The notes beneath the pieces were generated by a model. The model was given only the letters and a program-made list of their open reading frames with translations, had not been told where the DNA came from and did no database searches. Positions 215 through 20,878 of a DNA stretch of 22,873 nt are shown piece by piece. The translations under genes were made by a program, and so were the position numbers. The number at the start of each line of letters is the position of its first letter. Position 1 is the first letter of the stretch. This stretch comes from a virus, in the UHGV virus genome UHGV-0188094; one strand, 5' to 3'.

Positions 215-577
215 GGGGCTGATTCTGGATTCGACGGGATTTGCGAAACCCAAGGTGCATGCCGAGGGGCGGTTGGCCTCGTAAAAAGCCGCAAAAAATA
301 GTCGCAAACGACGAAAACTACGCTTTAGCAGCTTAATAACCTGCTTAGAGCCCTCTCTCCCTAGCCTCCGCTCTTAGGACGGGGATCAAGAGAGGTCAAA
401 CCCAAAAGAGATCGCGTGGAAGCCCTGCCTGGGGTTGAAGCGTTAAAACTTAATCAGGCTAGTTTGTTAGTGGCGTGTCCGTCCGCAGCTGGCAAGCGAA
501 TGTAAAGACTGACTAAGCATGTAGTACCGAGGATGTAGGAATTTCGGACGCGGGTTCAACTCCCGCCAGCTCCACCA
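215..577 (+). ncRNA. ssrA: tmRNA (SsrA), full length, 363 nt
   Basis: Starts GGGGCTGATTCTGGATTCGACGGG and ends ...CGCCAGCTCCACCA, the conserved tmRNA ends. The internal tag reading frame gcaaacgacgaaaactacgctttagcagcttaa encodes ANDENYALAA-stop, the enterobacterial SsrA degradation tag. Confidence 0.97.
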
Positions 578-1211: not shown

Positions 1212-1428
1212 AAAAATTCATATGCCCCTGACCACCTGGCAATGGATGTGGAGGAGCAGTAGCAATCAGTGCGGGTGTCACAATAAACCGGACCACTGTT
1301 TCATGGGTAACAAAAGTGCTCCCGCAGTTAATATTTTGGCACTGGCAGTAACGCTCTTTGGTGCTTTCAGTTACTTGAAAACTGCTCCTTGTGTGTGCCG
1401 CATGACCACATTTTGGACAATTCATCAT
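1210..1428 (-). CDS. ogr: Ogr/Delta-type zinc-finger late transcription activator (about 72 aa)
   Basis: MNCPKCGHAAHTRSS...TKERYCQCQNINCGSTFVTHETV...PHPLPGG closely parallels phage P2 Ogr (C-x2-C ... C-x4-C zinc finger, HPLP tail). Start chosen at the internal Met pair rather than the ORF-track start at 1473. Confidence 0.85.
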   Translation of the reverse strand: MMNCPKCGHAAHTRSSFQVTESTKERYCQCQNINCGSTFVTHETVVRFIVTPALIATAPPHPLPGGQGHMNF

Positions 1429-1496
1429 ATCCAGATCCCTACCTTTGCTATCAGAATCATTGTAATGATACACATAATATCAATATTGAGAACACT

Positions 1497-2597
1497 TTAT
1501 TCCATTTCAAGATCATCAATCCTCACTTCAAGCTCCAGACTGGTCGTAAAACCGTTATCCGGGCTGACGGTATGCGTCAGAGTCGTAATGGTCCATTCCG
1601 CATCATCTATCGGCTGTTTAAAACCACTGACTTTCACTGGCATTTCCGTGTAGAGATCTGCCCGACCTTCCGCCAGTTGTAGCGAGAATGACGCAACGCC
1701 GCGTTGCAGGCGTTCCCACTGCATTTTCGCTGCCCGTTCAGCGTTACTCCGATTAGCATAGGTGCGATTAAGTACCAGCACGTTTTCATCCGTACCCACC
1801 AGGTAATCGCCCTGCTTCGCTTCCGGCTCTTTCTTCTGCTTCTTAGTCCTGCGCTTACGCTTCACCGTAGTGCTTTCTTTCTTCGCGGGTTCGCGGGTAT
1901 GCAACCAGCTGGCAATTACGCCCGTGTAGGCTCCGCGATCTGCCAGGGTAAAGCGGTGGCTGTCGCCGTCCTTGCGTGTGATAGTGATCACTGGCAGAGG
2001 TTTACCGCTGGCGCTTTTGCCCTGTCCCTGCCGGATGAATAACAGATTGCCATTTTTCACCGACGCAATAGCACCGTACTGGCGCGCCAGCCGCATCAAA
2101 AAACTGCCGTCACTCTCATTGGTCTGGTCTATATGATCCACGGGCTTATCCGACAGATCTTTACCCAATGCCATCTTCAGTTTGTGCCGCGCAGCTATTT
2201 CCTTCACCACTTCCCCAACGGTGGTCTTGTGCCACGACTTTTCACGGCGGGTATTCAGCGTTTCCCGAAAATCAGCACTTCGCGCCCGGATAGTCAGTCG
2301 GTCCGGTGCGCCAGTGTGTTCAATCTCGTCCACCGTGAATGCCCCTTTCGGGAAAAGCGGCTGCCCCTTCCAGCCCAGCGCCAGCGTAATGACCGCACCA
2401 CGGCGCGGCAGCACTATTTTTCCATCGGCGTCGTCCAGCTCCAGATCAAGCTGGTCCGCTTCAAAGCCCCGGTTATCCGTCAGCGTCAGCCTCATCAGGC
2501 GGTTATCCAGCACAGTGGTGATATCCCTGCCCTCAATACTGATGCTGAATGCGGGAGTTTTGTTGCCTTTGTTAAGCAGTTCAGAGCTGAAATTCAC
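1497..2597 (-). CDS. P2 gpD-like tail protein (late gene D), 366 aa
   Basis: Full-length ORF directly upstream of ogr, as in P2 (D-ogr). GTG start overlaps the gpU stop (GTGA). The gpD identification is from recalled family resemblance plus synteny. Confidence 0.8.
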   Translation of the reverse strand: MNFSSELLNKGNKTPAFSISIEGRDITTVLDNRLMRLTLTDNRGFEADQLDLELDDADGKIVLPRRGAVITLALGWKGQPLFPKGAFTVDEIEHTGAPDRLTIRARSADFRETLNTRREKSWHKTTVGEVVKEIAARHKLKMALGKDLSDKPVDHIDQTNESDGSFLMRLARQYGAIASVKNGNLLFIRQGQGKSASGKPLPVITITRKDGDSHRFTLADRGAYTGVIASWLHTREPAKKESTTVKRKRRTKKQKKEPEAKQGDYLVGTDENVLVLNRTYANRSNAERAAKMQWERLQRGVASFSLQLAEGRADLYTEMPVKVSGFKQPIDDAEWTITTLTHTVSPDNGFTTSLELEVRIDDLEME

Positions 2598-3037
2598 GAC
2601 ATCAGCCCTCCCACCGTTTTACTGATATCGCTTAAGGCAGATGTTGCCGTTTCCTGCAGATTATTCAGTTGCGCACTGAGATCACCGAACATATCGGACA
2701 GGGATTCATCCACCCGTTTGAGCGACAGGGTGAACTCAATCCGGCGCGGCATACCGTCGCGGAAAAACTCCGTTTTAGTCTGATTCAGTCCCTCAATCAC
2801 ATACATGCCGTAAATCGTGCCGCTGCCTTCAATCAGAGGCCATGCTTTCCCCTGTTCTGCCATCTGCTCCAGTGCCAGCAACGACAGCCTGCCGCCTGTT
2901 ATCTCCGGCATAAGAACACCGGAAAGCGTCAGCATGTCGTTTTCCGGTCCCAGAAACTGCGTGGACGGACGTCGGTTTACCCGACTGTTTGCCGCATGTC
3001 GCCAGCTGCGTTGATACTGCAGTTGTCTTCCTGCCAG
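2594..3037 (-). pseudogene. P2 gpU-like tail protein, 5'-truncated by a deletion junction
   Basis: The frame reads ...QLQYQRSWRHAANSRVNRRPSTQFLGPENDMLTLSGVLMPEITGG... and continues upstream of the ATG at 2935 to a stop at 3050..3052. gpU-like sequence begins near 3025; upstream of that the sequence belongs to the gpN fragment in another frame. Confidence 0.6.
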
Positions 3038-3639
3038 TAGATGGACAGGTTATCCAGACGGGTGATCAGCAGCGCATTCGGCGGGAAGAACGGCGCACGC
3101 ACGGCCTGCAGGCCACCCATGCGTTTCTGGCTGATGATCATATCGGCAGCCAGTTTTTCACTGTTTTCCTGCTCTTTGTTGACCAGCGGGAAATACTTGT
3201 CAGACAACAGTTCACGACCGCAAATCACCACCAGACCGTCATCGTCCTGGTAAACCACGTCGATAAGCTCATTGACGGCATCCATCACCACAGCGTCCAG
3301 GTTGGCATATTCGCCACCTTTCCCGACTTTCACCGCACCCGGAGTGGTTTCACCGCCCGTGGTGGTGCTGCCCATGACGTGATCCGGTGCATCCTCACGG
3401 ATTTTCTGCAGCCAGCCTTTGTTCACATCCTGCAGCAGCGGGTTTTCGCTACGGTTGGAGGTTTTCGCACGCTTCACGCCGTTAAAGCCGATCATGATGC
3501 GGTCCAGTGCCTGACGTTTCACGATGGCGTCACGGATGCGCACCTGGAAATCCTGAAACTTCGCCCACAGATCCAGCTTCGCGTAGGTCAGCACCGTGTC
3601 AAAGTTGGTCTGCTCGCATTTATATTCCACATCGACCAT
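2977..3639 (-). pseudogene. P2 gpN-like major capsid protein fragment (internal portion only)
   Basis: Translation YKCEQTNFDTVLTYAKLDLWAKFQDFQVRIRDAIVKRQALDRIMIGFNGVKRAKTSNRSENPLLQDV...VGKGGEYANLDAVVMDA...ISQKRMGGLQAVRAPFFP...NLSIY matches the middle of P2 gpN. The N-terminal third or so is absent and the last 19 residues are read from gpU DNA in another frame. Confidence 0.7.
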
Positions 3640-3651
3640 CAGGGTCGGATC

Positions 3652-4320
3652 GGTGAAGTGATCGCCCTTGAGCCTGCGCTGGCAAAATACACCCGACGCG
3701 GATTAGACCTGGATACCTACTGGTTTGTGCAATACGGTATGACAACCCAGCCGTATCAGTTCACGAAAGGCAGCATTTTTCATCTGATGGAACCGGATAT
3801 TAATCAGGAGATCTACGGCCTGCCCGGTTATCTTTCTGCCATTCCGTCAGCCCTGCTCAACGAGTCCGCCACGCTGTTCCGTCGCAAGTATTACATTAAC
3901 GGCAGTCATGCGGGCTTTATCATGTACATGACCGATGCCGCGCAAAACCAGGAGGATGTGAACAACCTCCGCAATGCGATGAAAAGCGCCAAAGGGCCGG
4001 GCAACTTCCGCAACCTGTTTATGTACTCACCTAACGGCAAAAAGGACGGGCTTCAGATTATCCCGTTATCAGAAGTCGCAGCGAAGGATGAGTTTCTGAA
4101 TATCAAAAATGTTAGTCGCGATGACATGATGGCGGCACACCGCGTTCCGCCGCAAATGATGGGGATTATGCCTAATAATGTCGGGGGGTTTGGGGATGTG
4201 GAGAAGGCTAGTAAGGTTTTTGTGATAAATGAATTAATTCCTTTGCAAAAACGATTTAGAGAAATTAATGCATGGCTCGGGGAAAAACTTATAGAATTTT
4301 CTCCATATGAGCTTAACTAA
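3652..4320 (+). pseudogene. P2 gpQ-like portal protein, C-terminal fragment (about 222 aa) fused to the gpN fragment
   Basis: Only the last third of the 443-aa ORF-track entry 2989..4320 is real coding sequence (LEPALAKYTRRGLDLDTYWFVQYGMTTQPYQFTKG...RKYYINGSHAGF...); the rest is antisense to gpN. Opposite-strand placement next to N and next to the cos-like site fits gpQ in a reversed P2 map. Confidence 0.55.
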
Positions 4321-4369: not shown

Positions 4370-6379
4370 TTACAAATATGTGTTGCTATGTAGAGATGTG
4401 TTTATTCCATCTTTTATCTCAATTTTTGACGAAGCATACTCATCATTCGCACTATCATCTATATCAAACTCATCTTGTAGATGAAGTGACTCATTTAACG
4501 GTTTATAAAACTCACCCATCATCATTTTGTAATGGGCAGTATGCTCACTACATTCAAATATCTTCTGAAAAACAATTAAATATTTTTGCACAGACTCCGT
4601 ATCTAAATTCATATAAAGATCATCACCTGCAAAATGGGAACCATCATTAATCCATGATACTAAAGATTTAAATATGATTTTTTCATCACCATAAAAATGA
4701 CACTCAAGCTTCCTAATATCCATCCCACCTAATATCTTAAAGTAATTCTCCAAAATCCTTCGCATTGTATTTTGTATAGTATTATTATTAATGTCTGTTC
4801 TTCTCAATTCGCACCAGAGCAAATCATAAGACGTTTTTATTGGGTTTGATTCGCACTTTTCAAGATATGAAACCTTCCCTTTTTTCCTTACAATCCAAAA
4901 AGTCTCCTCTTTCATTGCTTGATTACCGGATCTTTTGGTATTAAAAGTCAACTCTTTATGAAAATAAATATTATGAGTAAGGAATATAATTTGCTTAATA
5001 TTTCCTTCATCCTTACGAACATCCTCCATTAAATCTTTAATCAACGAACTTACAATAAACAGAATATCACTATCTAAACTTGAAATTGGATCATCAAATA
5101 CTACAACACGATCATCTAAAACACCTGATGCATTATCACTCCCTCTAACAAGGCTATAAAAGTACAAAAAAGTGATAAATGTCTTTTCTCCCTCACTAAG
5201 GGTTGTACGAGCATTATCTCCACTATCTCTCACTATCATATAATGCTTTTTATCTTCGGAGGGTTTTAAGTAAAAATTTTTGAAGCCATAAGAGTCCAGA
5301 ATCTTGTTAATTTTTGTAATAGTTGGAAGAGTACTGGTTTTATTAGACTCAATTGCCTCAATAGCCGAAGTATTTAACATTAACTTCTTTTTGTCTTCTT
5401 CTATCCCAGATTTAAGTCCTTGTAACGTCCTATTAAATTTATCAGATTTGCTACGGTAAGAAGTTATTTCAGACTTTAACTCCACCTTTACGATATATGC
5501 CCATATCTGCTTAGAAAGATTACTAGCCTCTACCTTTCTATTACTATGTATTTTGTTATTATTATCTATCAATAGATTTGAATCATTCAAAAAAGAAATA
5601 AAATCATCAACAACTTCACTTAAGTCACTAAAATGAACTGATTCACTTAAAAAATTGCGTTTATTTTTTGCCAATTCAAAATTCTTGTTTAATTCAGATA
5701 ATACTATCTTAGCCTTATCCTCAAACACTTCATAATTTATGAATGGAGATTTAATCGCCCTTATATCATCTATCGCCTTCAAGATATTATTAAGTTGATA
5801 TTCATATTGTAAAACCAATGCATCGATTTCTCTTTTTTTTAACTCATATGTTTTATCAAAATATGATGAAAGATTATCAAATATATTATCATTTACATCC
5901 TGCTGGCAGAATGGGCACTTGGGATTAGATTTATTGAAATATGTTAAACCCTCCTTAACCCAATCACTGTTATTGAGCATTGTAATTAAGTCTGAAACAC
6001 TAACGTCTTTTTTCCCTAGAATACGCTCACTCCAAATTTCCCTACTCAAAATATCATCTATCCCATTGAAGGATGGAATTGTAATTGATACATGTGATGT
6101 CAATTCAGTAGAAAAAACAATTTTTGCTTTCTCAATTAACTCTGCTATTGAGCAAACTTCTGATGTATTATTTTCATACTCAGCCAACACTCTGGCTTTA
6201 AATTTTTCACTACTATTCCTTAATCCCTCAAAAGCCTTTGAGAACACATTGTCATGTTTTACTTTTTGCTTCCAACATGAATCTTTAAAAGATTTTTCAT
6301 GGTCTTCGATTTTTTTAATAACGCCTAATTCATTATCACCACCATCTATTAACTTTTCCTTTGCTATAATAGATTCCAT
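4370..6379 (-). CDS. ABC-type (PrrC/RloC-like, AAA_13-like) ATPase, C-terminal 669-aa part: CPFC motif, coiled-coil insert, LSEGEK signature, Walker B/D-loop, H-loop, and a C-terminal putative effector domain
   Basis: CPFC at aa 155-158; K/E/N-rich predicted coiled coil at about aa 175-380; TLSEGEK (aa 393-399); VVVFDDPISSLD (aa 425-436); FLTHN (aa 466-470). The C-terminal roughly 200 aa contain R540-x3-E544 followed by His 561 and His 582. Very AT-rich compared with the flanking phage genes. Confidence 0.65.
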   Translation of the reverse strand: MESIIAKEKLIDGGDNELGVIKKIEDHEKSFKDSCWKQKVKHDNVFSKAFEGLRNSSEKFKARVLAEYENNTSEVCSIAELIEKAKIVFSTELTSHVSITIPSFNGIDDILSREIWSERILGKKDVSVSDLITMLNNSDWVKEGLTYFNKSNPKCPFCQQDVNDNIFDNLSSYFDKTYELKKREIDALVLQYEYQLNNILKAIDDIRAIKSPFINYEVFEDKAKIVLSELNKNFELAKNKRNFLSESVHFSDLSEVVDDFISFLNDSNLLIDNNNKIHSNRKVEASNLSKQIWAYIVKVELKSEITSYRSKSDKFNRTLQGLKSGIEEDKKKLMLNTSAIEAIESNKTSTLPTITKINKILDSYGFKNFYLKPSEDKKHYMIVRDSGDNARTTLSEGEKTFITFLYFYSLVRGSDNASGVLDDRVVVFDDPISSLDSDILFIVSSLIKDLMEDVRKDEGNIKQIIFLTHNIYFHKELTFNTKRSGNQAMKEETFWIVRKKGKVSYLEKCESNPIKTSYDLLWCELRRTDINNNTIQNTMRRILENYFKILGGMDIRKLECHFYGDEKIIFKSLVSWINDGSHFAGDDLYMNLDTESVQKYLIVFQKIFECSEHTAHYKMMMGEFYKPLNESLHLQDEFDIDDSANDEYASSKIEIKDGINTSLHSNTYL

Positions 6380-6705
6380 TAGCTTATTTTTTCTTCTTTA
6401 AGAGATATTAGTTTCTCTTCATCCTCCTTAAGATCGCTACCAAGGGTAAATACACCTTTAATTTTATCTTGACTAAAATTTCTTTCAACAAAATCTTTAT
6501 TATATACGTAGCTTATTAAAGATATATTATTTTTCCATTTAATCGGACATGTTGGATATTGTTCAGGGTCATTAATAATTTTACTTATAGTTGTTTTACC
6601 TGCACCATTAGCTCCATATAAATAGTTAAATTTAGAAAGTCCATGTAAAAGCTGCGTAGGGCCATTATATGAGCCTACCTTGTCAATAACTACCTCTTCA
6701 ATCAT
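6379..6705 (-). CDS. N-terminal Walker-A part (108 aa) of the same ABC-type ATPase, separated from the downstream ORF by a frameshift (TAATG overlap)
   Basis: P-loop YLYGANGAGKTT at aa 28-39; RBS GAGGA upstream of the ATG at 6705. The stop TAA shares its last A with the ATG of the 669-aa ORF. One extra A in the A6 run (6387..6392 on the plus strand) would fuse the two into a single ORF of about 778 aa. Confidence 0.6.
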   Translation of the reverse strand: MIEEVVIDKVGSYNGPTQLLHGLSKFNYLYGANGAGKTTISKIINDPEQYPTCPIKWKNNISLISYVYNKDFVERNFSQDKIKGVFTLGSDLKEDEEKLISLKEEKIS

Positions 6706-6840
6706 CCTCTAATCCTCAAAAAACAGATTAATCCTATCAAATCAATGATAATAGAAGACATTACTTACCTAATTACAAGGTGATCATTTATACAGCTGTA
6801 AATAAATCAGGCTAATCATCTATTTGTCATAACGCGCGCT

Positions 6841-6859
6841 CGTATCCCCGCCACGCCTG
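6841..6859 (-). other. cos-like site (186-type cohesive-end core), inverse orientation
   Basis: The reverse complement of 6846..6857 is GGCGTGGCGGGG, which equals the first 12 nt of the 186 cohesive end as I remember it (GGCGTGGCGGGGAAAGCAT). The downstream bases diverge. Confidence 0.45.
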
Positions 6860-6901
6860 CCCGCTTTATGTAGTGGTTTTCATGCACCTGCATGATCTAC
6901 G

Positions 6902-7647: not shown

Positions 7648-10062
7648 TTAATACAGGTTCCGCCACTGATCATCTTCCTGCAAACGCTGGTTCCGATAGA
7701 AGATACGCAGGCCTGCTCCTGACGGAATACTGCCTCCGCGAAGGAGTAAATCGATCTCTTTCTCGCTGCCATCAAATCCTCTGGACTTCAGCTCATACAC
7801 GAGCTGCAGTCGCTGATGGTCTGTAATTCGCTGTTTGTAGTCTTTACGCCGTTTCGGTTTCACCAGGCGTAACCTTGCTGCCAGTTCCCGGCGCTCTTTT
7901 TTGCTCATACTGTGCAGGTAATCGTGCAACTCCTTGTCATCCATGCTGGTAATGTCCGTTCTGGGGTCCCCATCAGCTGATTTATCTTTCTCCTGTTGGT
8001 TCAAATTTTCAGCAAGGGGACAGTTATTGCCACGAGTCCAAGGGGCGCAAGCGCCCTGGTCGGCTGCCGCCTCCTGAACGTCAACGGCCTTACGAACCAT
8101 TTTCCACTTCACTGCATGAGTGCAGATCTTGCCCTCTGCAATGGGTGACCAGATGCCATAAATACGAATGCCGTGATCGCCATAGGCGGTCGGCTCTTCG
8201 TTGATTTCATAAGCGGTTCTGATCAGGTGATATTTGCGGGGAACCAGTACGCCGCCCTGCTTCATGATGTAGGTGGCAAAACAACCAGCATCAGCAGCAG
8301 CCAGGATTGCATCAAGGCGCGGGTTATCCAGTACCGGCGCACCTGCTTTTTTGTCCCCCTGTTGCCTTGCCGCCTGACCAGCCAGCAATCGCAGTTCACG
8401 GTAAGCCTGACGCCCCGGAATGCCAAAGAAGCGGAATTGCTGAACACGATGCAGAGACGCCCAGGCATTAACGTATTCAGCATTATCACGCAGGGATTTC
8501 CCCGTTTCCTTGCTGATCTCGCCAGCCAGACCACGCCCGTCAATGTTCTTACTGATGTATTTCGCGATGTAGCTTGTTGGCGTACCTTTGCGCGGGTTAA
8601 TCAACTCAGACTTAAAGCGCGGCCCAGTGTTATTGCCCAGCTCCTCGCGGTCTTCACGGATGGCAAACTTACGCAGTAATACAGTGATGGCGCGGCGGTC
8701 TTTTTTGCGCATAAAACACAACAGGTGCCAGTGAACTGTACCGTCATGATGCGGCTCAGCCACCCGCACGCCATACCAGCGCAATCCGGCTTTGTGCATC
8801 GCCTTACGAAATGCAGCAAACATGCCGACCAGGTAATCACTACTTTGTCTTACCGTCGCATTTGTCCAGGTTGGGTTGGGCCTGCCGTTATTTAGCGTGG
8901 AATGGAAACGTGACGGACAGGTGATGGTGTAGAAAACGGCACAGTCACTGCGCATTTCAGCGATAAGCTCCAGACCTTTAACACAGGCCATCATCTCATT
9001 GCGGCGATGCGCCGGGTTGCTGCTGCTGGCGTTTACCACATCTTCCATATCCAGCGTGTCACCGTCTTCGTTCACCAGTTCATGAGAACGGAAAAACTCC
9101 AGCGACTTACGGCGCTGCTCACGTTTATGCATCACGGCTTCATAGCTGACATAGGGAGATGCTTTTTTGCTGACCAGACAGACAGCACGCAACTGCTCTT
9201 CCCGCCATTCGCAACGCATCTTCCATAATTTCCTATACCACCAGTCGGCGCACAGCATACGCGCCAGCGAACCCGGAATGAGTTCATAGGGCACGGGTTT
9301 ACGGCGGTTTCTTTTCCGACGGAGTTGCTCAAACGCAGGCGGGATGACATCCAGTCGCAGGGTTTCTGCTGCCACCTTTTCCCATGTCTTGCGGATTTCT
9401 TCTGGCTTAACATCATCGGTGGCGTACAAATCACCACAAGCGGCATCAAGACACATGCTCATATGCGCAGCGACAAGAGTAGACAGGCGTTTCACCTGAT
9501 CCTGACTCATTTCAGGCAGGATCAGCAGGCCGTCCAGCCCTTCATGGCTTGCCATAAAGCGAAAAGAAGTGGATAGCTGACTCTCGCGTACATGCTCCAG
9601 TCGTTCCAGACATGGCTTAATCGTCTCACGCAAATAGCGGGAATAAGCCTTTGGCCTGCCCAGGCTGCTGAAGTATTCGATACGTTGCATCAGCGGCTTG
9701 CTGATGTGGGTGGGCTGGGCGCTGACATCTGCCAGAATGACCATGTCTGGGTTAAAACGCTGCTGCTCATGCGCCAGCTTTGCCCGACTAATGAGCTTAT
9801 CCTGCTCCATTTCGCGCTGGACAGGATCACGGGATTCATTAAAGAAATAACGCTCCCAGACCTGATCACTCAGTGCCTCACGGCGCAGCAGTTCCTGCTC
9901 GTTATCGGCAGCGTACAGAGTGATCAGGTTTGAAAGCGCAGAAACCGGCGCAACTTCCGCCGGGTCCAGATAAGGGTTAATGGCCTTTTTCGGGCTGTTC
10001 CATGAGAACGATGCGGAAGCCTCGTTAAAGCCGCAGCAGTTGTTCATATCGGCATGGTTCAT
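7648..10062 (-). CDS. P2/186 gpA-type replication initiation protein (rolling-circle endonuclease), 804 aa
   Basis: Large ORF in the position of gene A downstream of the lysogeny-switch genes. Identification is from recalled family resemblance and synteny. Its ATG overlaps the stop of the upstream Dam-like gene (ATGA). Confidence 0.8.
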
Positions 10063-11018
10063 GCACGTACTCCGTACACGGCAGAACTATCCACGCCACG
10101 CGAATAATCAAATCCCACCCAGCAGCGCGGCCCGGAAACAGCGATGATTTCTGTTGCAGATTTACTCTCACCAGCTGCTACGCCGATGCTGCGTTTTGCC
10201 TTGATGTAGTGGTGAGTAAAATTGCGATACAGCGAACGGATCAGGGATGTGTCACTGTTAGAAATAATGACCGGATGTCCTTCTGATGACCGATGTTCAA
10301 GAACGGATGCCAGGTGATACTGGTCATCTTCAGTGAAGCCGTCAGTGTGATAACCGGAAAACGTGCCGTCATACGGCGGATCGCAATACACCACATCCCC
10401 CGCCTTCAACATCGCCAGCGTTTCATCAAAGCTGGCGCAGATAAACGTTGCCCGCTGGGCTTTTTCTGCAAATGCGCGAATTTCTTTTTCAGGAAAATAC
10501 GGATTTTTATAATTACCGTAGGGAATGTTGAAATGCCCGCTCTTGTTATAGCGACATAAACCACGGTAACCGTGACGATTGAGATACAGGAAATATACCG
10601 CTTTCATGAAATCAGTAATTTCAGTTGAGTAATTAAACTCCTGCCTTATGTTGTAATAAGCCACCTCCCTGTTTGCTTCCTCAAATAAAGCTCTGGCGCG
10701 AGATATAAACGATTCACAATCAGCAGCAACCTTTTTATAGAGGTTGATTAAATCAGGATTAATATCCGCAACAAGATAGCTGGGGTAGTGGATCTCCTGC
10801 GCTTCGTTCTGGATTGCTTCAGCGGTCACACGCAGCAGTTCTGCCGCTTCGACGTGGTTTAGCTGGCGGGATGTGATATGACACGCAAGACTATCAAGGC
10901 GGGCAGCCATTGCTTCAGCCCTTGCCCGGCGTTCTTCCAGACGAGCCTCTGTCAGTAAAATATTAAGCCCTGCGTCATCCGGTCCGATTTTAGTCGTGAG
11001 GGTTTCAATATTACGCAT
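10059..11018 (-). CDS. Dam-like N6-adenine DNA methyltransferase homolog with a replaced N-terminus that lacks the AdoMet-binding motif I
   Basis: The region [15 protein letters not shown]...[36 protein letters not shown]...[17 protein letters not shown]...PVIISNSD aligns to E. coli Dam from about residue 50 onward, including the DPPY catalytic motif. The first roughly 85 aa are Ala/Glu-rich helical sequence with no FxGxG or W-GGK motif. Start taken at the ATG at 11018 (RBS AGGAGA). Confidence 0.7.
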
Positions 11019-11085
11019 AATCAATTCTCCTGAATTTAGATAAAGGGATGCCCGGCGGGTTTACGCCATTAATTTCATTAGCTGG

Positions 11086-13135: not shown

Positions 13136-14155
13136 ATGACCATCAGAAAACAGCCGAACGGAAAATGGTTGTGTGAGTGCTATCCCAATGGACGCAATGG
13201 TAAGCGCGTGCGTAAGCAATTTGCTACCAAAGGCGAAGCCATTGCGTTTGAAAGCTTCACAATGGAAGAAGTGAACAAAAAACCGTGGTTAGGAGAAAAG
13301 GATGATCGGCGACACCTATCAGAATTAATTGAGCTTTGGTATTCCCTGTATGGTCAGACACTCGCAGACCCCAAGCGCCTCATGGCGAAACTTAGAATTA
13401 TCTGTAATGGTCTAGGCGACCCCATCGCCTCAGAACTGACAGCCGGTGACTTTACGAAATACCGCGAAGCACGGTTAAAAGGTGAAGTACGAAATGAAGA
13501 TGGGACGCTTATGTCGCCCGTTAAGCCCCGCACGGTAAACCTCGAACAGCGCAATCTATCATCGGTGTTCGGTACATTAAAAAAACTAGGACACTGGTCA
13601 GCACCAAACCCGCTGGCAGGACTTCCAACCTTCAAAATTGCCGAAGGTGAGCTGGCTTTTCTTTCCATGGACGAAATCAAGCGCCTGTTGGCTGCATGTG
13701 CTGAATCTCAAAGCCCCAGCTTATTAATGATTGCCAAAATATGTTTGGCTACCGGCGCACGTTGGAGCGAAGCCGAAAACCTGCATGGCCACCAAATATC
13801 GAAATACCGAATTACTTATATAAAGACAAAAGGTAAGAAAAACAGAACAGTACCGATATCACAGGAACTATATGACGAACTCCCCAAGCACAGAGGGAAG
13901 TTATTCACGCCATGCAGAAAAGCCTTTGAGCGTGCAGTAAAGCGGGCCGGTATTGAACTTCCGGAGGGGCAATGCACCCATGTATTACGTCATACATTCG
14001 CCAGCCATTTTATGATGAACGGCGGAAACATACTGGTACTACGCGATATTCTGGGCCATGTGGATATAAAAATGACGATGATTTATGCCCACTTTTCCCC
14101 TGACCACCTAGAAGATGCGGTAACAAAAAACCCACTGTTTAATTTAAAATGGTAA
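13136..14155 (+). CDS. int: P2/186-type tyrosine integrase (339 aa)
   Basis: N-terminus ...GRNGKRVRKQF..KGEA.AFE... and C-terminal motifs ...ATGARWSEA..., ...HVLRHTFASHF..., ...GHVDIKMTMIYAHF parallel P2 Int (R, H-x-x-R, catalytic Y). Confidence 0.85.
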   Translation: MTIRKQPNGKWLCECYPNGRNGKRVRKQFATKGEAIAFESFTMEEVNKKPWLGEKDDRRHLSELIELWYSLYGQTLADPKRLMAKLRIICNGLGDPIASELTAGDFTKYREARLKGEVRNEDGTLMSPVKPRTVNLEQRNLSSVFGTLKKLGHWSAPNPLAGLPTFKIAEGELAFLSMDEIKRLLAACAESQSPSLLMIAKICLATGARWSEAENLHGHQISKYRITYIKTKGKKNRTVPISQELYDELPKHRGKLFTPCRKAFERAVKRAGIELPEGQCTHVLRHTFASHFMMNGGNILVLRDILGHVDIKMTMIYAHFSPDHLEDAVTKNPLFNLKW

Positions 14156-15690
14156 ATTTAACGATGAAAAGATTGAAATCAGTTTCCGATGCAGTTATCC
14201 AACTCAGATTAAATGCGGTAAAAGCAAGTATTCAAAGCGTCAATCCAAACGAGTTTATAACACATTGCCTTGATTATAACCTCCAGAAATTTAACAATCA
14301 GCTTGAAATGTTACAACACCTACCATGGGTTGTGAATTTATGCATTAAATGGTCCGCCAGTGCGCTGGGTAAAAAACGGAAATTTAAACATATTGACAGA
14401 CCTGGTGCTGTCAGGTTGCTACAACGAGCATATGAGGAACTAAGTATAATTCCAACTGGTCTGGAAAATATAGACAAAGGGATTAACTTTTTCCTTAGAA
14501 ATACGTTATATCAACAAGGTATTTATCAAAGATTAGATGCTTTAAATACAATTAGCAGACAAGTTTTCTTGTTTTCTTCCTTAGATGACAACAATAGAAT
14601 CAAGCGTAGATTCAAAGAACTTACTGATGTTGATATAAACGATTTTCTAAAACTATCATTTGTGTTAGTATCACTCGTTACCTTACAAGCACCAGTAAAG
14701 AAAATAACAATAGATTCTTTCGCAGCTCTTTACTCCGTAATACCTAAAGATACAATCGAGAAATTTCTGAATACTATATCTATCCCTTACGAAGAACTAG
14801 CTCGGTTTTGCTGTACAAAAGATAATGAGACACCTTTAGTAGAATATTATGCTCCATCGCCTTTCTTAGAAAAACCTTTCATCAAATTCGAAGGAAATTA
14901 TCACCAAATACATACGCAGCTAACTTCGACCAGTATACAAACCTTTATATATGATTTGCTTCGCAGAGATGATGCAGAATCGTTCATGGACAAATTTGGG
15001 CGAGTTTTCGAAAATGCAGTCAACCAGCTATTAGATGAAAGTGGAATTGCTTATATTGCTGAAGGAAATTTAAAAGAATATCTACCTCAAGAGAATAAAG
15101 TTGTAGATTTTCTACTACCTCATGATGAAGCTAACATTTTCATCGATGCTAAAGGTGTTGAGATAAACCAAAAGGGAATGGTTACACTACGACCAGGGGA
15201 TATTTCTGCCAATATAAAAAGCTCCGTATTAAAAACTATAGAACAAGCACACTCAGTAAATAGAGAGCTAATTAAAAAAGGTAACCAAAATTTTTCTTTT
15301 AAAAAAGAGTCCTACATTTTATGTCTTACTTATAAAAATTTATTCCTTGGAAATGGTACATTTCTAAATAAATCCTATGCTAACATCGAAATGAAAAAAA
15401 TCCGAGATAGGCATTCAGAAGAATATCAAATACCTGATGAGAACATTTTCTGCATATCATTTGAGGAATTCGAGTATCTGCTATCTTCTTGCAAGGAATA
15501 CTCAAAACCTGTACATGAGGTACTGCGAGAAGCTGTAGTTAGAAACCAAACACCATCAAGTGCAGTTTTCCTTTTTGCACATCATATCCGTGACTCATTC
15601 CCCAAAATACGTTCATCTGAGATCGTCAGGCTCGCAGGCTTGAGCGAGATCAACCATATCGTTGAACGATTAGAGCAAGCTGGCTCTTGA
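14149..15690 (+). CDS. Cargo protein (513 aa) with a central PD-(D/E)xK-like nuclease motif; function unknown, candidate defense or abortive-infection factor
   Basis: AT-rich ORF whose ATG overlaps the last codons of int. Candidate motif E305 ... VVD320FLLP ... IFID333AK335 (about 15046..15170). No family recognised by eye. Confidence 0.55.
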   Translation: MVNLTMKRLKSVSDAVIQLRLNAVKASIQSVNPNEFITHCLDYNLQKFNNQLEMLQHLPWVVNLCIKWSASALGKKRKFKHIDRPGAVRLLQRAYEELSIIPTGLENIDKGINFFLRNTLYQQGIYQRLDALNTISRQVFLFSSLDDNNRIKRRFKELTDVDINDFLKLSFVLVSLVTLQAPVKKITIDSFAALYSVIPKDTIEKFLNTISIPYEELARFCCTKDNETPLVEYYAPSPFLEKPFIKFEGNYHQIHTQLTSTSIQTFIYDLLRRDDAESFMDKFGRVFENAVNQLLDESGIAYIAEGNLKEYLPQENKVVDFLLPHDEANIFIDAKGVEINQKGMVTLRPGDISANIKSSVLKTIEQAHSVNRELIKKGNQNFSFKKESYILCLTYKNLFLGNGTFLNKSYANIEMKKIRDRHSEEYQIPDENIFCISFEEFEYLLSSCKEYSKPVHEVLREAVVRNQTPSSAVFLFAHHIRDSFPKIRSSEIVRLAGLSEINHIVERLEQAGS

Positions 15691-15819
15691 TTGCACAATT
15701 GCAAATTGGCGACAAATTGGCGGCAGAGCATTAAAAATGCGTAAAATAAACAAACACCAAATAATACTAATATGCTGTTTTAAAACATAAATATATGTTT
15801 TTATCATAATAATAATGGT

Positions 15820-15868
15820 ATGTAGGAATTTCGGACGCGGGTTCAACTCCCGCCAGCTCCACCAAATA
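15820..15868. repeat. attR of the P2/186-type prophage and attL of the downstream island: second copy of the 49-bp ssrA 3' end
   Basis: Identical to 533..581. Confidence 0.85.
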
Positions 15869-15898
15869 TTGATGTACTGAAGTTCAGTAAAGTCTACT

Positions 15899-15933
15899 AA
15901 GCCCGCACAGCACAAGCTCTGCGGGCTTTTTTA
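15899..15933 (+). terminator. Rho-independent terminator after the second ssrA 3'-end copy
   Basis: Stem gcccgcacag...ctctgcgggc followed by TTTTTT (15927..15932). Confidence 0.6.
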
Positions 15934-16030
15934 CGTCTATTGTAGTCTAGTGAGAATTGCTGAGAACTACGAGTTATGGCACCCTGAATGGGACCCACGA
16001 AGATGGGTCCTAAAATCGAGGGTCCCAAAC

Positions 16031-17260
16031 ATGGCCAAAATCGCTAAGAAGCTCACTGACACTGAAATCAAAAGCACCAAACCTGCCGAAAAAGAGGTTA
16101 ACCTTTTTGACGGCGATGGTTTGCTGTTGCGAATCGCTCCCCTGGCGAAGGGAGGGAAGAAAAATTGGTATTTCAGATATGCAGTGCCTGTGACCAAAAA
16201 GCGAACTAAGGTGAGCTTAGGAACCTATCCTCACCTTACACTTGCGAAGGCACGAGCTTTACGTGATGAATACTTGTCGTTGCTTACAAATGGTATAGAC
16301 CCCCAAGTTCATAACAACCAAAAAGCCAATGCACTGAAAGATGCCACGGAACATACATTTCAAGCAGTAGCCAAGAAGTGGCTTGATGAGAAAGTCAAAA
16401 CGTCAGGCATCTCCCAAGATCATGCTAACGACATCTGGCGAAGCCTAGAGAGAAATATCTTTTCCACATTGGGTGATACCCCAATTAAGGAGATTCGCCC
16501 TAAAATGCTTAAACAGCATTTAGAACCCATAGAAAAACGAGGTGTCCTTGAAACACTTCGCCGCATCATATCCCGCCTGAATGAAATTTTCCGCTATGCA
16601 GCAACAGAAGAACTCATAGAATTCAACCCGGCAGACAACCTGGGGCAACGGTTCAGCAAGCCAAAAAAACAGAATATGCCAGCATTACCCCCTTCCGAAC
16701 TCCCTCGCTTCTTGGTTGCTCTAAACAATGCTTCTATCCGTTTGGAAACAAGGCTACTGATTGAGTGGCAACTTCTCACATGGGTTCGCCCAGGTGAAGC
16801 TGTTCGCACAAGATGGTCAGATATTGATATTGAAACTGGCATGTGGAACATCCCGGCGGAGTTTATGAAAATGAAGAAGCCTCACAAAGTTCCACTGAGC
16901 AAAGAAGCTTTGCGAGTTTTGGATTTAATGAAAGTCATCAGCGGGCATAGAGAGTGGGTGTTCCCCAGTATCAAAGCTCCACTCAATCACATGCATGAAC
17001 AAACAGCTAATGCGGCCATAATCCGTATGGGTTTCGGAGGTGAGCTTGTAGCTCACGGTATGCGATCCATTGCTAGAACGGCTGCTGAGGAGTCTGGCAA
17101 GTTTAGGACTGATGTCTTAGAAGCCGCCCTTGCCCACTCGAAGAAAGATGAAATAATTGCAGCCTACAATCGTGCAGAGTATCTCACTGAACGGGTGGTT
17201 CTCATGCAATGGTGGAGTGACTATGTTTCGTCTCAAAAATGCAAAGTTATTGCCGCATAA
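16031..17260 (+). CDS. P4-family tyrosine integrase (IntA/SlpA-like)
   Basis: MAKIAKKLTDTEIKSTKPAEKEVNLFDGDGL..., ...DIWRSLERNIF..., ...VPLSKEALRVLD..., ...HGMRSIARTA..., ...AYNRAEYLTERVVLMQWW are P4-integrase hallmarks. Start taken at the ATG at 16031; the ORF track's upstream GTG at 15950 would run into the terminator. Confidence 0.85.
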   Translation: MAKIAKKLTDTEIKSTKPAEKEVNLFDGDGLLLRIAPLAKGGKKNWYFRYAVPVTKKRTKVSLGTYPHLTLAKARALRDEYLSLLTNGIDPQVHNNQKANALKDATEHTFQAVAKKWLDEKVKTSGISQDHANDIWRSLERNIFSTLGDTPIKEIRPKMLKQHLEPIEKRGVLETLRRIISRLNEIFRYAATEELIEFNPADNLGQRFSKPKKQNMPALPPSELPRFLVALNNASIRLETRLLIEWQLLTWVRPGEAVRTRWSDIDIETGMWNIPAEFMKMKKPHKVPLSKEALRVLDLMKVISGHREWVFPSIKAPLNHMHEQTANAAIIRMGFGGELVAHGMRSIARTAAEESGKFRTDVLEAALAHSKKDEIIAAYNRAEYLTERVVLMQWWSDYVSSQKCKVIAA

Positions 17261-17323
17261 CTCTCCCATGATGGATTAACTATCTTGATTTAGTTAAAGA
17301 ATTAATAATCACACCATTAACCT

Positions 17324-17372
17324 ATGTGGACTAAGCATAGCCATTTACAAATGGGGACATTGAGTCCACATA
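17324..17372. repeat. Composite 49-bp palindrome upstream of the serine recombinase gene (candidate recombination or operator site)
   Basis: Outer arms tatgtggact / agtccacata and inner arms ccattt / aaatgg, placed symmetrically around a central AC dinucleotide (17348..17349). Confidence 0.5.
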
Positions 17373-17542
17373 ACGAAAGCTGTCGGTCATATCAGCTAAA
17401 TAATTCACATCTCTTCTCGATTATCATACACCTCGAAGATCTACCAAATTCGCTCTAATCAATGATAAAACAGTTGAATTCGGTTGAAATTTGATCAATT
17501 TTATCCACTACATTGTATTGAATCATCCATGAGGTTTCGTGC

Positions 17543-19099
17543 ATGGCTAGCGAAAATGACAAAAATCATAGAGTTAGGGTCGCGCAGTACTTGAGGATGT
17601 CTACCGACCATCAGCAATATTCTTTACATAATCAGTCCGAATATATCAAAGATTATGCTGAAAAGAACAATATGGAAATCGCTTATACCTACGATGATGC
17701 AGGTAAGAGCGGAGTCAGTATCGTAGGCAGGCATTCTTTGCAGCAGTTACTTAGCGATGTAGAACAAAAGAAAATAGATATACAGGCTGTATTATTTTAT
17801 GATGTGAGCCGTTTTGGTCGTTTTCAAAATAGTGATGAAGCGGCATATTATTCCTTTCTATTTGAGAGAAATGGTGTAGATCTTATATATTGTTCCGAAC
17901 CTATACCCACTAAAGATTTCCCTTTAGAGTCCTCTGTTATACTGAATATAAAAAGATCTAGTGCTGCATATCACAGCAGGAATCTATCTGAAAAGGTATT
18001 TATAGGGCAAGTAAATTTAATAAAGCTTGGTTATCATCAAGGCGGTATGGCTGGTTATGGGCTGAGACGTCTTTTAGTAGACGAAAATGGCATAGCTAAA
18101 GAAATATTGAGTTTCCGCAAAAGAAAGAGTATTCAAACAGATAGGGTAATATTAATTCCGGGACCAAAAAATGAAATAAAAATTGTAAATAGAATATATG
18201 ATCTCTTTATAGATAATAACGTCCCAGAATTCATTATTGCTGAGAGATTAAATGAACAGAACATACCTGCAGAAAATGGAACATTATGGACTCGTGCAAA
18301 AATACATCAAATTTTGACAAATGAAAAATATATTGGAAACAACATATATAACAAAACCTCATCTAAATTAAAAAGTAGGCTTGTAAAAAACCCCAAACAT
18401 GAATGGGTTAGATGTGACAAGGCATATAAACCTATTATTTCAAAGAAAAAATACAATAAAGCTCAAGAAATAATTCAGCTCCGATCCATTCATTTGACTA
18501 ATGAAGATCTATTAGAAAAACTAAAACAAAAATTAGAATCTAATGGAAAACTATCAGGCTTTATCATTGATGAAGATGATACAGGCCCTTCATCTTCTGT
18601 TTATAGAACCCGATTTGGTGGTCTTTTAAGAGCATATACTTTGATTGGTTATAAGCCAGAACATGATTACAGCTATCTCAAAATAAATGAAGCACTAAGA
18701 TCATTTTACTCAGAGATAATTGAGGATTTTAAGGGTGAAATTTTAAAAAGTAACTGTCATATAGACGAGTATAAATATGCCCCAATGCTTTACATCAATG
18801 ATGAGTTTTTAATTTCCGTCCTTGTTACTAAATGCATACATATGAAATCAGGTAAACTTAGATGGAAAGTCCGGTTTGATAACTCACAGAAAGCAGACAT
18901 AACAATTGTTATACGAATGAATTCACAAAATATTTCACCTCTTGATTTTTATATCATACCAAAGATTGAAAACGAATATAATAAAATGTGCATGACGGAA
19001 ACAAACAACATTCGATTAGATCTCTATAGATTTGATAATCTTGATAAACTTCTACAAATTATTACTCGCATGAAAGTGAGGGAACTATATGCTGCCTGA
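17543..19099 (+). CDS. Large serine recombinase (518 aa)
   Basis: N-terminal resolvase catalytic domain (VAQYLRMSTDHQ with the catalytic Ser; ...DDAGKSG...; ...FYDVSRFGRF...) followed by a recombinase-type domain (GYGLRRLL...). RBS GAGG 8 nt upstream. Confidence 0.8.
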   Translation: MASENDKNHRVRVAQYLRMSTDHQQYSLHNQSEYIKDYAEKNNMEIAYTYDDAGKSGVSIVGRHSLQQLLSDVEQKKIDIQAVLFYDVSRFGRFQNSDEAAYYSFLFERNGVDLIYCSEPIPTKDFPLESSVILNIKRSSAAYHSRNLSEKVFIGQVNLIKLGYHQGGMAGYGLRRLLVDENGIAKEILSFRKRKSIQTDRVILIPGPKNEIKIVNRIYDLFIDNNVPEFIIAERLNEQNIPAENGTLWTRAKIHQILTNEKYIGNNIYNKTSSKLKSRLVKNPKHEWVRCDKAYKPIISKKKYNKAQEIIQLRSIHLTNEDLLEKLKQKLESNGKLSGFIIDEDDTGPSSSVYRTRFGGLLRAYTLIGYKPEHDYSYLKINEALRSFYSEIIEDFKGEILKSNCHIDEYKYAPMLYINDEFLISVLVTKCIHMKSGKLRWKVRFDNSQKADITIVIRMNSQNISPLDFYIIPKIENEYNKMCMTETNNIRLDLYRFDNLDKLLQIITRMKVRELYAA

Positions 19100-19985
19100 A
19101 AAAAATGAATTCCCAATAATTCAAATTGAGATTGCAAAAATAAAATTTCTTAACCCACGAACAAGAAATAAGGTAGTGCATGAAGAAATAAAGGAAAGCA
19201 TAAAAAAAAGAGGATTAAGCAAGCCAATAAGCGTAAGAGCTATTGATGAAGGCGATTTCAAATATGCTTTAATTTGTGGTCAAGGGAGAATAGAGGCTCT
19301 CGTTGCATTAGGTGAAACTATTATTCCAGCAATTATAAGAGATGTATCAGAAGAAGATGCTTACGTTATGAGTTTAGTTGAAAACATTGCAAGGAGAAGA
19401 CCACGTTCTAATGAGTTATTACAGGTGATTAAAGACATGAAAATCAGAGGACTTTCAGACTCCGAAATAAGTGAGATTACTGGATATTCATCGAACTGGG
19501 TGAGCAGTATTAATATGCTACTTGATAAGGGAGAGCATAAACTTCTCTCAGCAGTCGAACGGGGTAATTTGCCTCTGTATCTCGCAGTGCAATTTGCAAG
19601 ATGTGAAACTGAGGAAGCACAAGATATTCTTACCGAAGCATATGATAAAAAATTAATAAAAAGTCGGGACATTATAAAGATAAAACACATTCTAAATCAA
19701 AGAACAGTTGGGAATAAAGGTGCAAAAGCAGCCGGATTTTATTATCACAAACCATCAAAAAGGATGACTGCAGAGGAGTTGATTGAGCTTTATGAAAATA
19801 GTATCGCTGAACATAAATCTGTTTATAACAACTCAAAATTCATAAAAACCAACCTACTAATAGTAAATGAGATTTTTAACATCATAATGATGAATAAAAG
19901 CTTTCAACATATACTTGAACAAGAGAATCTTTCAGAACTACCATCTCAGATATTAACCCCAGTAAACAAAGAGGTATTAAAATGA
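19089..19985 (+). CDS. ParB/Srx-domain DNA-binding protein with HTH (298 aa), first of two
   Basis: N-terminal ParB-like motif (...KPISVRAID...LICGQGRIEALVALG...) and an HTH (GLSDSEISEITGYSSNWVSSI). Its ATG lies 8 nt upstream of the recombinase stop, so the reading frames overlap by 11 nt. Confidence 0.65.
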   Translation: MLPEKNEFPIIQIEIAKIKFLNPRTRNKVVHEEIKESIKKRGLSKPISVRAIDEGDFKYALICGQGRIEALVALGETIIPAIIRDVSEEDAYVMSLVENIARRRPRSNELLQVIKDMKIRGLSDSEISEITGYSSNWVSSINMLLDKGEHKLLSAVERGNLPLYLAVQFARCETEEAQDILTEAYDKKLIKSRDIIKIKHILNQRTVGNKGAKAAGFYYHKPSKRMTAEELIELYENSIAEHKSVYNNSKFIKTNLLIVNEIFNIIMMNKSFQHILEQENLSELPSQILTPVNKEVLK

Positions 19986-20878
19986 TTCAGATACGTTTTG
20001 GCGATAATTTTATTTACCTGGAAACTAATAAGTTAATTCCATCTAAGGAATTATTAGAAAACGTAAAGCGAAGCCATAAATATCATCAAATAGTTACCTC
20101 TATCGAAAGCTTAGGTATTATTGAACCAATAATAGTATTCTATGACAAAGATAAAGATGTCACTAAGATACTTGATGGCCATTTAAGGGTTGAGGCTTTA
20201 AAAGACTTAGGTATAGAAAAAGCTCCATGTATACTTTCGAGCATAGATGATGCTTTCACTCCTAACAAACAAGTGAATCATATAAATGTAGTTGAAGAAC
20301 ATAGAATGATAATTAAGTCTCTGGCAAAAGTATCAATTGAAAAACTTAGTGCTGCTTTGGGCATATCTGTTGATGCCATAAAAGATAAAGCGAATGTGAT
20401 GAACGGCATAGATCCAAGTGTAATTGCGAAACTTTCTGATAAACCTATACCTAAGGCTACATTTGACGTTTTGAGGAAAATGAAGCCAATTCGCCAAATT
20501 GAAGCAGTCGGTACAATGATTAATTTTGATAATTATAGTAAAAAATTTGCAATGAGCATCTTGGATGCAACACCGGCATCGATGATAGTAAATAAAGGGA
20601 AAAACACTCCCTATAAAAAGGACATAAAAAAAACCATACTTCGTCTGGAACAAGAAATGGCAACAACTTCGGAAGAAACGAAAAAGCTTCAAACCGAGTA
20701 TGGTTCAGATATGTTGAAATTCGTTATAATCCAGTCATATATTAATAAATTACTTGGCAATTCTAAAGTTCTTCATTGGTTCTTAGAAAACGAGGTTGAT
20801 TATCTTAATGAGTTAAAAAGAATTTCTAGAATAAATTCTTTGGATGATAAGACTCTTACTGAAAACAGCAAGTCATAG
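19982..20878 (+). CDS. ParB/Srx-domain DNA-binding protein with HTH (298 aa), second of two
   Basis: N-terminal ParB-like motif (...ILDGHLRVEALKDLG...) and an HTH (SIEKLSAALGISVDAIKD). ATG overlaps the upstream stop (ATGA). Confidence 0.65.
   Translation: MIQIRFGDNFIYLETNKLIPSKELLENVKRSHKYHQIVTSIESLGIIEPIIVFYDKDKDVTKILDGHLRVEALKDLGIEKAPCILSSIDDAFTPNKQVNHINVVEEHRMIIKSLAKVSIEKLSAALGISVDAIKDKANVMNGIDPSVIAKLSDKPIPKATFDVLRKMKPIRQIEAVGTMINFDNYSKKFAMSILDATPASMIVNKGKNTPYKKDIKKTILRLEQEMATTSEETKKLQTEYGSDMLKFVIIQSYINKLLGNSKVLHWFLENEVDYLNELKRISRINSLDDKTLTENSKS

Follow-up and report, generated by a model that had tools for sequence, protein, structure and literature searches.

The DNA analysed here is a stretch of 22,873 nucleotides, called the window, in whose coordinates all positions are given. 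A gene that we assign to the RloC type (AAA_13 / PDC-S06) occupies positions 4370..6705 on the minus strand. It is frameshifted, and measures 2336 nt here and 2337 nt when intact. The 5' fragment is a 108-aa ORF (6379..6705, minus strand) encoding the N-terminal lobe with the P-loop, and the 3' fragment is a 669-aa ORF devoid of Walker A (4370..6379, minus strand). At the break the minus strand reads ...CTT AAA GAA GAA AAA ATA AGC TAA, and the stop codon overlaps the ATG with which the second ORF starts, as TAATG. The 1-nt deletion is in a run of six A (A6; T6 on the plus strand, 6387..6392), which is A7 in the intact gene. A preliminary description of the window had reported a gene split at A6 into ORFs of 108 and 669 aa that meet at TAATG, with the ATPase motifs divided between them; both points were confirmed in the sequence, GANGAGKT being encoded by the 108-aa ORF, and LSEGE, VVVFDDP, SSLD and THN by the 669-aa ORF.

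Adding one A to the tract produces a single ORF of 778 aa containing LKEEKNKLMESIIAK, as had also been proposed. The repaired protein is identical, residue for residue, to a protein present on 87 public contigs, and an alignment of 15 full-length copies of the gene (2337 nt) has no indel column other than this tract. The repair of the frame is therefore biologically meaningful and not a chance coincidence of frames. The gene has a second homopolymer, an A8 tract (T8 on the plus strand, 5833..5840, minus strand), which is intact in the window and for which ±1 variants exist in public assemblies.

The repaired protein matched the Pfam AAA_13 profile (PF13166) over nearly its whole length (residues 10-718 on profile positions 2-713 of 713, 547.4 bits for a cut-off of 36), and the PADLOC PDC-S06 model PDLC04890 likewise (E = 7.7e-267, residues 1-734 on 1-726 of 732). 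Its ABC-ATPase motifs, all on the minus strand, are Walker A (GANGAGKT, residues 31-38, 6592..6615), the ABC signature LSEGE (fused residues 503-507, 5186..5200), Walker B VVVFDDP (534-540) followed by the D-loop SSLD (542-545; together 5072..5107), and THN, which contains the switch or linchpin His578 (4970..4978). The core residues of these motifs are invariant or nearly so in two sets of 22 and 30 homologues, and in both sets the two cysteines of a zinc-hook-type CxxC (CPFC, fused residues 264-267, 5906..5917, minus strand) are invariant. The C-proximal part carries the putative nuclease triad R649-X3-E653-X37-H691, with S690 before the histidine (4634..4762, minus strand), and all these residues are invariant among homologues. 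RloC proteins are defined by a C-proximal Arg-X3-Glu-X36-52-His, often with Ser before His (PMC2610378), and the repaired protein has the complete set of sequence features described there: ATPase motifs, a coiled-coil with CX2C and the C-proximal triad. By these motif criteria the gene encodes a single-polypeptide enzyme of the RloC type, in which a Rad50-like ABC ATPase bearing a CxxC hook is joined to a predicted anticodon-nuclease domain of the PrrC/RloC type.

An AF2 model was made from a protein (P0003) 99% identical to the repaired one. In this model residues 1-88 form the beta/P-loop lobe, and long helices (93-121, 129-151, 275-318, 325-351 and 363-454) flank the CxxC, the hook region itself being of low confidence. 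The break falls inside helix 93-121, the first long helix past the P-loop lobe. The top fold matches were Rad50, which ranked first, and the heads of LmuB and AriA. Searches of PDB sequences and of NCBIfam returned no matches, and the PADLOC matches include no model named RloC.

The likeness to the RloC proteins of Geobacillus kaustophilus and Acinetobacter baylyi (about 750-800 aa, ABC-ATPase motifs, a coiled-coil insert with CxxC, a C-terminal triad) rests on the published motif criteria, the E. coli branch being known from sequence; homologues 43-45% identical to the E. coli protein are called 'wobble nucleotide-excising tRNase' by JGI. Excision of the wobble nucleotide and its ATP- and DNA-dependent activation are known only for G. 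kaustophilus RloC (PMC2610378, PMC3458546). The E. coli gene differs from these RloC genes in being prophage-hotspot cargo, and in being frameshifted in the window. PrrC of the E. coli prr locus is matched by the C-terminal two-thirds (PADLOC PrrC profile, E = 5.4e-11, residues 460-704), and the two proteins share the same ATPase-plus-nuclease logic; PrrC, however, is devoid of the coiled-coil and zinc-hook insert and is encoded within a type I R-M locus (PMC2610378), whereas the window gene has no adjacent R-M gene. PDC-S06, the family matched over its full length by the repaired protein, is a computational candidate for which no experimental test was found in the searchable literature.

The element that carries the gene is a 186/P2-like prophage next to ssrA, a deletion-ridden remnant without capsid, terminase or tail genes, in which deletion junctions were located at about 3024, 3650 and 10785. 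On one side the gene is bordered by a 3' fragment of the portal gene gpQ, truncated by deletion (3650..4320, plus strand), and on the other lies the replication gene gpA (7648-10062). A piece at 6831..6900, whose minus strand contains GGCGTGGCGGGGA, bounds the slot; it is conserved in Fels-2 and in P2-like phages of Klebsiella and E. coli, and by its likeness to the cos sequence of phage 186 it is presumably the cos region. The gpA-gpQ interval is a defence hotspot of P2-like phages (PMC9122126), and the window gene, beside the cos-like piece and in a position where relatives carry variable cargo, lies within it. This is the slot of the P2 old/tin locus (Rousset 2022, Vassallo 2022), from the portal gene to cos/DinI/gpA, and its cargo varies similarly: strain ACN001 carries a DUF262 protein there, C21 has P-loop NTPases and Fels-2 an unknown gene. 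Unlike old and tin, the window cargo belongs to a different protein family and is broken, and the host prophage is a non-viable remnant. The label 'defence gene' given earlier fits both the family and this context. In a scan for promoters and terminators, promoters scored no better than chance.

The preliminary description had left three explanations of the split side by side: an inactivating mutation, slipped-strand phase variation and a sequencing error. It had also proposed a comparison of tract length in related strains. In RefSeq, all 23 complete E. coli records with the gene have a span of A7 length (102 nt, compared with 101 nt in the window), and A7 was confirmed in the records that were read directly; the 6 IMG/VR contigs carrying the gene all have A7. 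None of the 23 complete records and none of the 6 viral contigs thus deviates from A7. In relatives the gene is annotated as a single CDS of 2337 nt, 'AAA family ATPase'. A second 778-aa form of the protein was found on 549 contigs; the dN/dS between the two intact E. coli alleles is about 0.13, and the second allele has ATA in place of the ATG at which the 669-aa ORF is presumed to start. Among the best 120 homologue clusters, 117 have lengths of 732-782 aa and at least 94% query coverage, and all 80 loci from other species, as kept in a contig scan in which Geobacillus and Acinetobacter were absent, match residues 1 to about 732 in one frame. The two-ORF layout is conserved nowhere in these 120 clusters and 80 loci. 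All homologues examined are single ORFs, and no case was found in which the Walker A module and the remainder are consistently separate genes, which points to a broken gene. A7 is the ancestral, intact state and A6 a deletion: the frame of the window gene is broken relative to intact orthologues under purifying selection. Of the three explanations, the inactivating mutation is the one supported by the constancy of A7, by the single-ORF homologues and by the ATA codon of the second allele.

We consider, with a probability of about 80%, that the A6 split is an ordinary, recent pseudogene of an RloC-type abortive-infection gene, generated by slippage. Replication slippage, the likely mutational mechanism, would have removed one A from the A7 run at codons 105-107; translation now halts after 108 residues, severing the P-loop lobe from the rest of the protein. 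The A6 allele was inherited by a small E. coli clade, in which deletions have also stripped the prophage of capsid, terminase and tail genes. Characterised RloC depends on its ATPase for activation of the nuclease, and mutants of the G. kaustophilus protein in Walker A (K44N) or in Walker B are nuclease-null in vivo (PMC3458546); the split therefore most likely abolishes function. The pseudogene would be recent, since it shows no amino-acid changes compared with an intact allele; in the window clade, no further disabling change followed the first.

If the missing A were a homopolymer sequencing or assembly error, the genome would truly be A7 and the gene intact. Homopolymer ±1 products are indeed very frequent in public assemblies, many of them on 5-Mb long-read contigs, and in two SRA-derived contigs (L024 and L026) the A7 and A8 tracts of the gene are each one nucleotide shorter, which could be technical. 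The second frameshift of these two contigs (A8 to A7) is for that reason no proof of pseudogene decay. The A6 allele is nevertheless linked to two SNPs (773A and 2049A) and to one prophage-remnant architecture, and it was found in at least three distinguishable genomes, in ENA, NCBI and SRA-derived assemblies from several projects, with the caveat that some 'independent' sample pairs may represent a single isolate, once as reads and once as assembly. Three types were distinguished: that of the window, a type with an additional 1.1-kb deletion and 2 SNPs, and a type with SNP 949A. A random error is unlikely because A6 recurs with its linked SNPs in these genomes. In the window itself the gene's A8 tract has its full length, as do four further A8 tracts, and homopolymer frameshifts are absent from the other large genes. 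At position 12238, where a RefSeq relative carries an annotated frameshift, the window is intact, and over 15707-22873 its alignment to strain ACN001 is free of gaps. NCBI already lists the two ORFs as separate 'AAA family ATPase' proteins (MCD3874127.1 and MCD3874126.1). No RefSeq complete genome carries the deletion junctions of the window; the window haplotype with A7 was sought in five more RefSeq loci, all of which have other haplotypes, and a metagenome scan for a tract of variable length found nothing. The A6 allele is a real, heritable deletion in assembled genomes, and a sequencing error, one of the explanations first offered, is very improbable.

A real deletion could be one position of an evolved switch, in which the A7 run would reversibly toggle a toxic abortive-infection gene by slipped-strand mispairing, as in the homopolymer contingency loci of Neisseria, Haemophilus and Campylobacter. 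The likeness is that a frameshift in a mononucleotide run turns off a phage-conflict gene, and RloC-type nucleases are potentially toxic (PMC2610378). In addition, frameshift alleles at the tract are recurrent and go both ways: A6 occurs on three haplotypes, the two further ones being represented by L024 and P0150, an A8 and a -2 variant were each found once, and A7 and A9 variants occur at the A8 tract of the gene. The presence of A6 on two other haplotypes indicates that the tract is a site of recurrent mutation and not the scene of a unique accident. The window tract is, however, only 7 nt long when intact, and mutation-accumulation data from mismatch-repair-proficient E. coli put the mutation rate of such runs orders of magnitude below that of classical contingency loci. 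Deviation from A7 was seen in 0 of 29 complete or viral genomes, and within the A6 clade the tract remained A6 across later SNPs and a deletion. Long runs are not enriched in the gene (3 A/T runs of at least 7, compared with 3.19 expected from codon-order shuffles, P = 0.62), and the tract is missing or displaced in orthologues of 52-67% identity: the orthologue of E. hormaechei has A5, P0031 has the tract at another place, and the P4-borne paralogue does not have it. As controls, A8 tracts in three unrelated genes of the window were examined; each of them has both ±1 products in public data, at least as often as the RloC-type gene (for instance ParB1, 330 and 15 contigs; orf701, 85 contigs against 518 intact). 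Frameshift alleles of the RloC-type gene, on about 24 contigs compared with at least 647 intact, are no more frequent than at these control tracts. Recurrent loss of function under selection was dropped as an explanation after this control: the recurrence of frameshift alleles is no sign of selection because unrelated A8 tracts show the same. With a short, unenriched and unconserved tract, and variants as rare as in unrelated neighbouring genes, phase variation as an evolved switch finds little room and we regard it as most unlikely. Equally doubtful is the looser proposal that the two runs of this AT-rich gene, A7 and A8, amount to a de facto off/on toggle of a costly suicide nuclease at the level of the population, or that -1 slippage at A-AAA-AUA rescues A6 as a leaky, attenuated allele; if it were true, the recurrent ±1 alleles on several haplotypes would reflect selection and not plain mutation pressure.

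The split gene might also still work: its 108-aa and 669-aa products could assemble without a covalent link, or low-level -1 ribosomal or transcriptional slippage on the A run could yield some full-length protein, making A6 an attenuated allele. Separate N- and C-terminal halves have been used to reconstitute Rad50 heads, and a split protein of this kind need not be dead. A -1 shift past the AAA codon would restore exactly the wild-type ...EEKNKLMES; the next 0-frame codon is AUA, which is rare in E. coli, with the stop two codons further on, and an overlap such as TAATG is typical of translational coupling, through which the 669-aa piece could be made. Read in the 0 frame (GAA GAA AAA AUA), however, the sequence contains no X XXY YYZ heptamer, and the downstream 97 nt have no unusually stable RNA fold (z = -0.46). 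Heptamer, stimulator and conserved layout, the marks of programmed -1 frameshifting or transcriptional slippage (with a run of about 9 or more A/T as an alternative mark), are all absent, and no homologue examined conserves the split arrangement. The second allele does not have the ATG, yet it too has an A6 variant. The break, internal to a helix, also leaves the P-loop and the conserved CWKQK segment (a possible Q-loop) on different fragments, and two A6 contigs carry a second frameshift downstream. We therefore hold residual function to be improbable.

If the gene is a slippage-generated pseudogene, MCD3874127.1 and MCD3874126.1 should be read as one broken RloC-type gene, and it should not be scored as active when defence systems are counted in the A6 clade. 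Both ±1 products were found at essentially every A8 run examined in the neighbouring accessory genes, so that a homopolymer split is weak evidence of a switch. The window would provide a concrete case of a defence gene pseudogenised in a defective P2-like remnant; according to a 2026 survey, defence pseudogenes are rare in such remnants, where intact defence genes are usually retained (PMC13586616). In strain C21 the same gene is cut short by an IS5-like element.

The gene for the RloC-type ATPase (4370..6705, minus strand) is divided into a 5' ORF of 108 aa (6705..6379), which carries GANGAGKT, and an ORF of 669 aa (6379..4370). The minus strand at the split reads ...TCT CTT AAA GAA GAA AAA ATA AGC TAA, and the ATG GAA TCT... 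of the second ORF begins within TAATG; the homopolymer run is T6 on the plus strand (6387-6392), called A6 here. Insertion of one A produced a single 778-aa ORF, in agreement with the preliminary description, which was accurate in all details for the ORFs, the motif and the A6 run. The repaired ORF covers the entire Pfam AAA_13 model (547 bits) and matches PADLOC PDC-S06 along its entire length (E = 7.7e-267).

Among 5,426 complete E. coli genomes, 23 records contain the tract stretch, and in all 23 it spans 102 nt, compared with 101 nt in the window. The E. coli records that were read directly have A7 and one annotated CDS of 2337 nt, and the A tract is the sole indel column of the gene in an alignment of 15 full-length copies. 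Public data include the repaired protein, residue for residue, on 87 contigs and a sister 778-aa form on 549. Between the two intact E. coli alleles about 2% of sites differ (dN/dS ~0.13), and the second allele has ATA in place of the ATG taken as the 'start' of the 669-aa ORF. The best homologue clusters are 732-782 aa long with at least 94% of the query covered in 117 of 120 cases, and all 80 loci from other species gave a single-frame match to residues 1 to ~732. Homologues with the Walker A module consistently encoded as a separate gene, the case that had been named as speaking against a split gene, were found in no lineage among these 120 clusters and 80 loci. The window gene carries a 1-nt deletion relative to A7. 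The suggestion of an inactivating mutation is thus supported by A7 in all 23 complete records and in six IMG/VR viral contigs, and by the single-frame homologues.

In a 22-sequence alignment, the Walker A core, C264-P-F-C267, LSEGE, the Walker B DDP core, H578 and R649-x3-E653-x37-S690-H691 are invariant. They match exactly the set of features on which the definition of RloC by Davidov and Kaufmann rests (PMC2610378): the motifs of an ABC ATPase, an inserted coiled coil bearing a CX2C zinc hook, and Arg-X3-Glu-X36-52-His with Ser preceding His. Homologues of 43-45% identity carry the JGI label 'wobble nucleotide-excising tRNase', and the C-terminal part matches the PADLOC PrrC profile. In the AlphaFold model of a 99%-identical protein (pLDDT 81), residues 1-88 form an N-terminal beta/P-loop lobe, after which come long helices; the model's best Foldseek matches are the heads of Rad50, Lamassu LmuB and PARIS AriA. 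No experimental record for the E. coli branch was found in the literature searched; the motifs support the name 'RloC-type' well as a classification, but the name does not stand for a demonstrated activity.

On one side the gene is flanked by a fragment of the portal gene, on the other by a 70-nt piece that is conserved across Fels-2 and many P2-like phages; this piece includes the cos-like GGCGTGGCGGGGA and is followed by DinI, then gpA. This slot is the cos-proximal gpA-gpQ defence hotspot of P2-like phages (PMC9122126; PMC9519451); it is occupied by other cargo in relatives and by orthologues of the ATPase in Enterobacter. A 52%-identical paralogue of 761 aa is flanked by psu and the integrase gene in a P4-like satellite (GCA_012710875.1, 22-4930), so the family is cargo of both P2 and P4 hotspots. 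The tmRNA gene ssrA (215-577, plus strand; tag ANDENYALAA) is directly upstream of the prophage, as expected for integration at ssrA. Only a remnant of the prophage is left: region 1298-4320 has the order ogr/gpD/gpU, a 630-nt capsid-gene fragment and the 3' portion of the portal gene, deletion junctions at ~3024 and ~3650 having reduced the capsid and portal genes to fragments, and ORF 2989-4320 is a chimera spanning both. This architecture is shared by no RefSeq complete E. coli genome, and a sub-lineage (L008, L009) has lost an additional 1.1 kb (window 2979-4092). In the 321-aa ORF at 10059-11024 (minus strand; junction ~10785), DUF2732 runs on into a Dam-type (D12) methyltransferase, an in-frame fusion made by a ~356 bp deletion; in relatives, DUF2732, a TraR/DksA gene and Dam are three separate genes.

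The exact 669-aa product was found on nine public contigs and the exact 108-aa product on 14. A random homopolymer sequencing error, one of the origins proposed for A6, is very unlikely, because A6 travels with the linked SNPs 773A and 2049A, because it occurs in three distinguishable genomes from different assembly projects (the window type, a second type that lacks a further 1.1 kb and differs by two SNPs, and a third with SNP 949A), and because the large genes of the window have no other homopolymer frameshift, its A8 runs being full length. The A6 mutation is older than the divergence of its sublineages. Two SRA-derived contigs of different haplotypes, L024 (ERR15665875) and L026 (SRR19090777), have both lost one A at each tract of the gene (A7 to A6 at the first, A8 to A7 at the second), which may reflect either pseudogene decay or homopolymer under-calling.

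Exact look-ups of predicted products showed that frameshifts recur at the tract: A6 occurs in allele 2 on nine contigs, UMEA strains among them, and in a third haplotype (L024), A8 in allele 1 on one contig and a -2 variant in one public protein (P0017); the gene's own A8 run (5833..5840) also has A7 and A9 variants in public data. This recurrence does not point to a contingency locus evolved for slipped-strand phase variation: long A/T runs are not enriched (three runs of at least 7 observed versus 3.19 in codon-order shuffles), the tract, which was to be compared in related loci, is A5, displaced or absent in orthologues, and 0/29 complete or viral genomes vary at it. The decisive control was provided by the A8 runs of three unrelated window genes, two ParB/RepB genes and orf701 (window 19202, 20626, 938), for which every one of the six predicted ±1 products is represented in public data, the -1 forms on 330 (a 42-aa ParB1 fragment), 72 and 85 contigs, often far commoner than the ATPase-tract variants. 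Homopolymer frameshift alleles, real or technical, are therefore a general background of E. coli accessory genes, against which the ATPase tract is unremarkable, and the data lend no support to phase variation.

For the RloC of G. kaustophilus, mutants in Walker A (K44N) and in Walker B have no nuclease activity in vivo (PMC3458546). Since the split detaches the whole P-loop lobe, breaking within helix 93-121 of the AlphaFold model upstream of the conserved CWKQK segment, loss of function is most likely. The 669-aa piece could be translated by coupling at the TAATG overlap, and the two products may reassemble non-covalently, or rare -1 slippage may recreate the wild-type sequence. There is no sign of programmed recoding: the split has no in-frame X XXY YYZ heptamer, and the downstream RNA has no unusual structure (z = -0.46). 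The split is best read as an ordinary and recent case of slippage-type pseudogenisation, affecting an RloC-like defence gene carried by a prophage that is itself in decay. Defence pseudogenes in P2 remnants were rare in a recent survey (PMC13586616), and the window gene is an example; NCBI already lists the split ORFs as two separate proteins. The finding also serves as an annotation correction and as a calibrated warning against inferring switches from homopolymer splits.

In E. coli C21 (NZ_CP184155.1, 2874-5184), an IS5-like element, ISKpn26, truncates the same gene in an independent inactivation event; a similar insertion may account for numerous 'partial' products of ~382-391 aa at contig ends of draft assemblies.

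A 513-aa ORF (14149-15690, plus strand; GC ~0.33), which overlaps the P2-type integrase gene at the latter's 3' end, has no Pfam or PADLOC match. Strain TUM12355 has a dCTP deaminase and ThyX in this slot, and ACN001 another hypothetical gene; the slot looks like a second variable cargo slot beside int, possibly defence-related. Downstream of the prophage, a second island (15950-20878, plus strand) carries genes for a 436-aa tyrosine integrase and a 518-aa large serine recombinase, and a tandem pair of ParB/RepB-like genes; strains ACN001 and TUM12355 match it at 99.6% identity and have a type I R-M system next.
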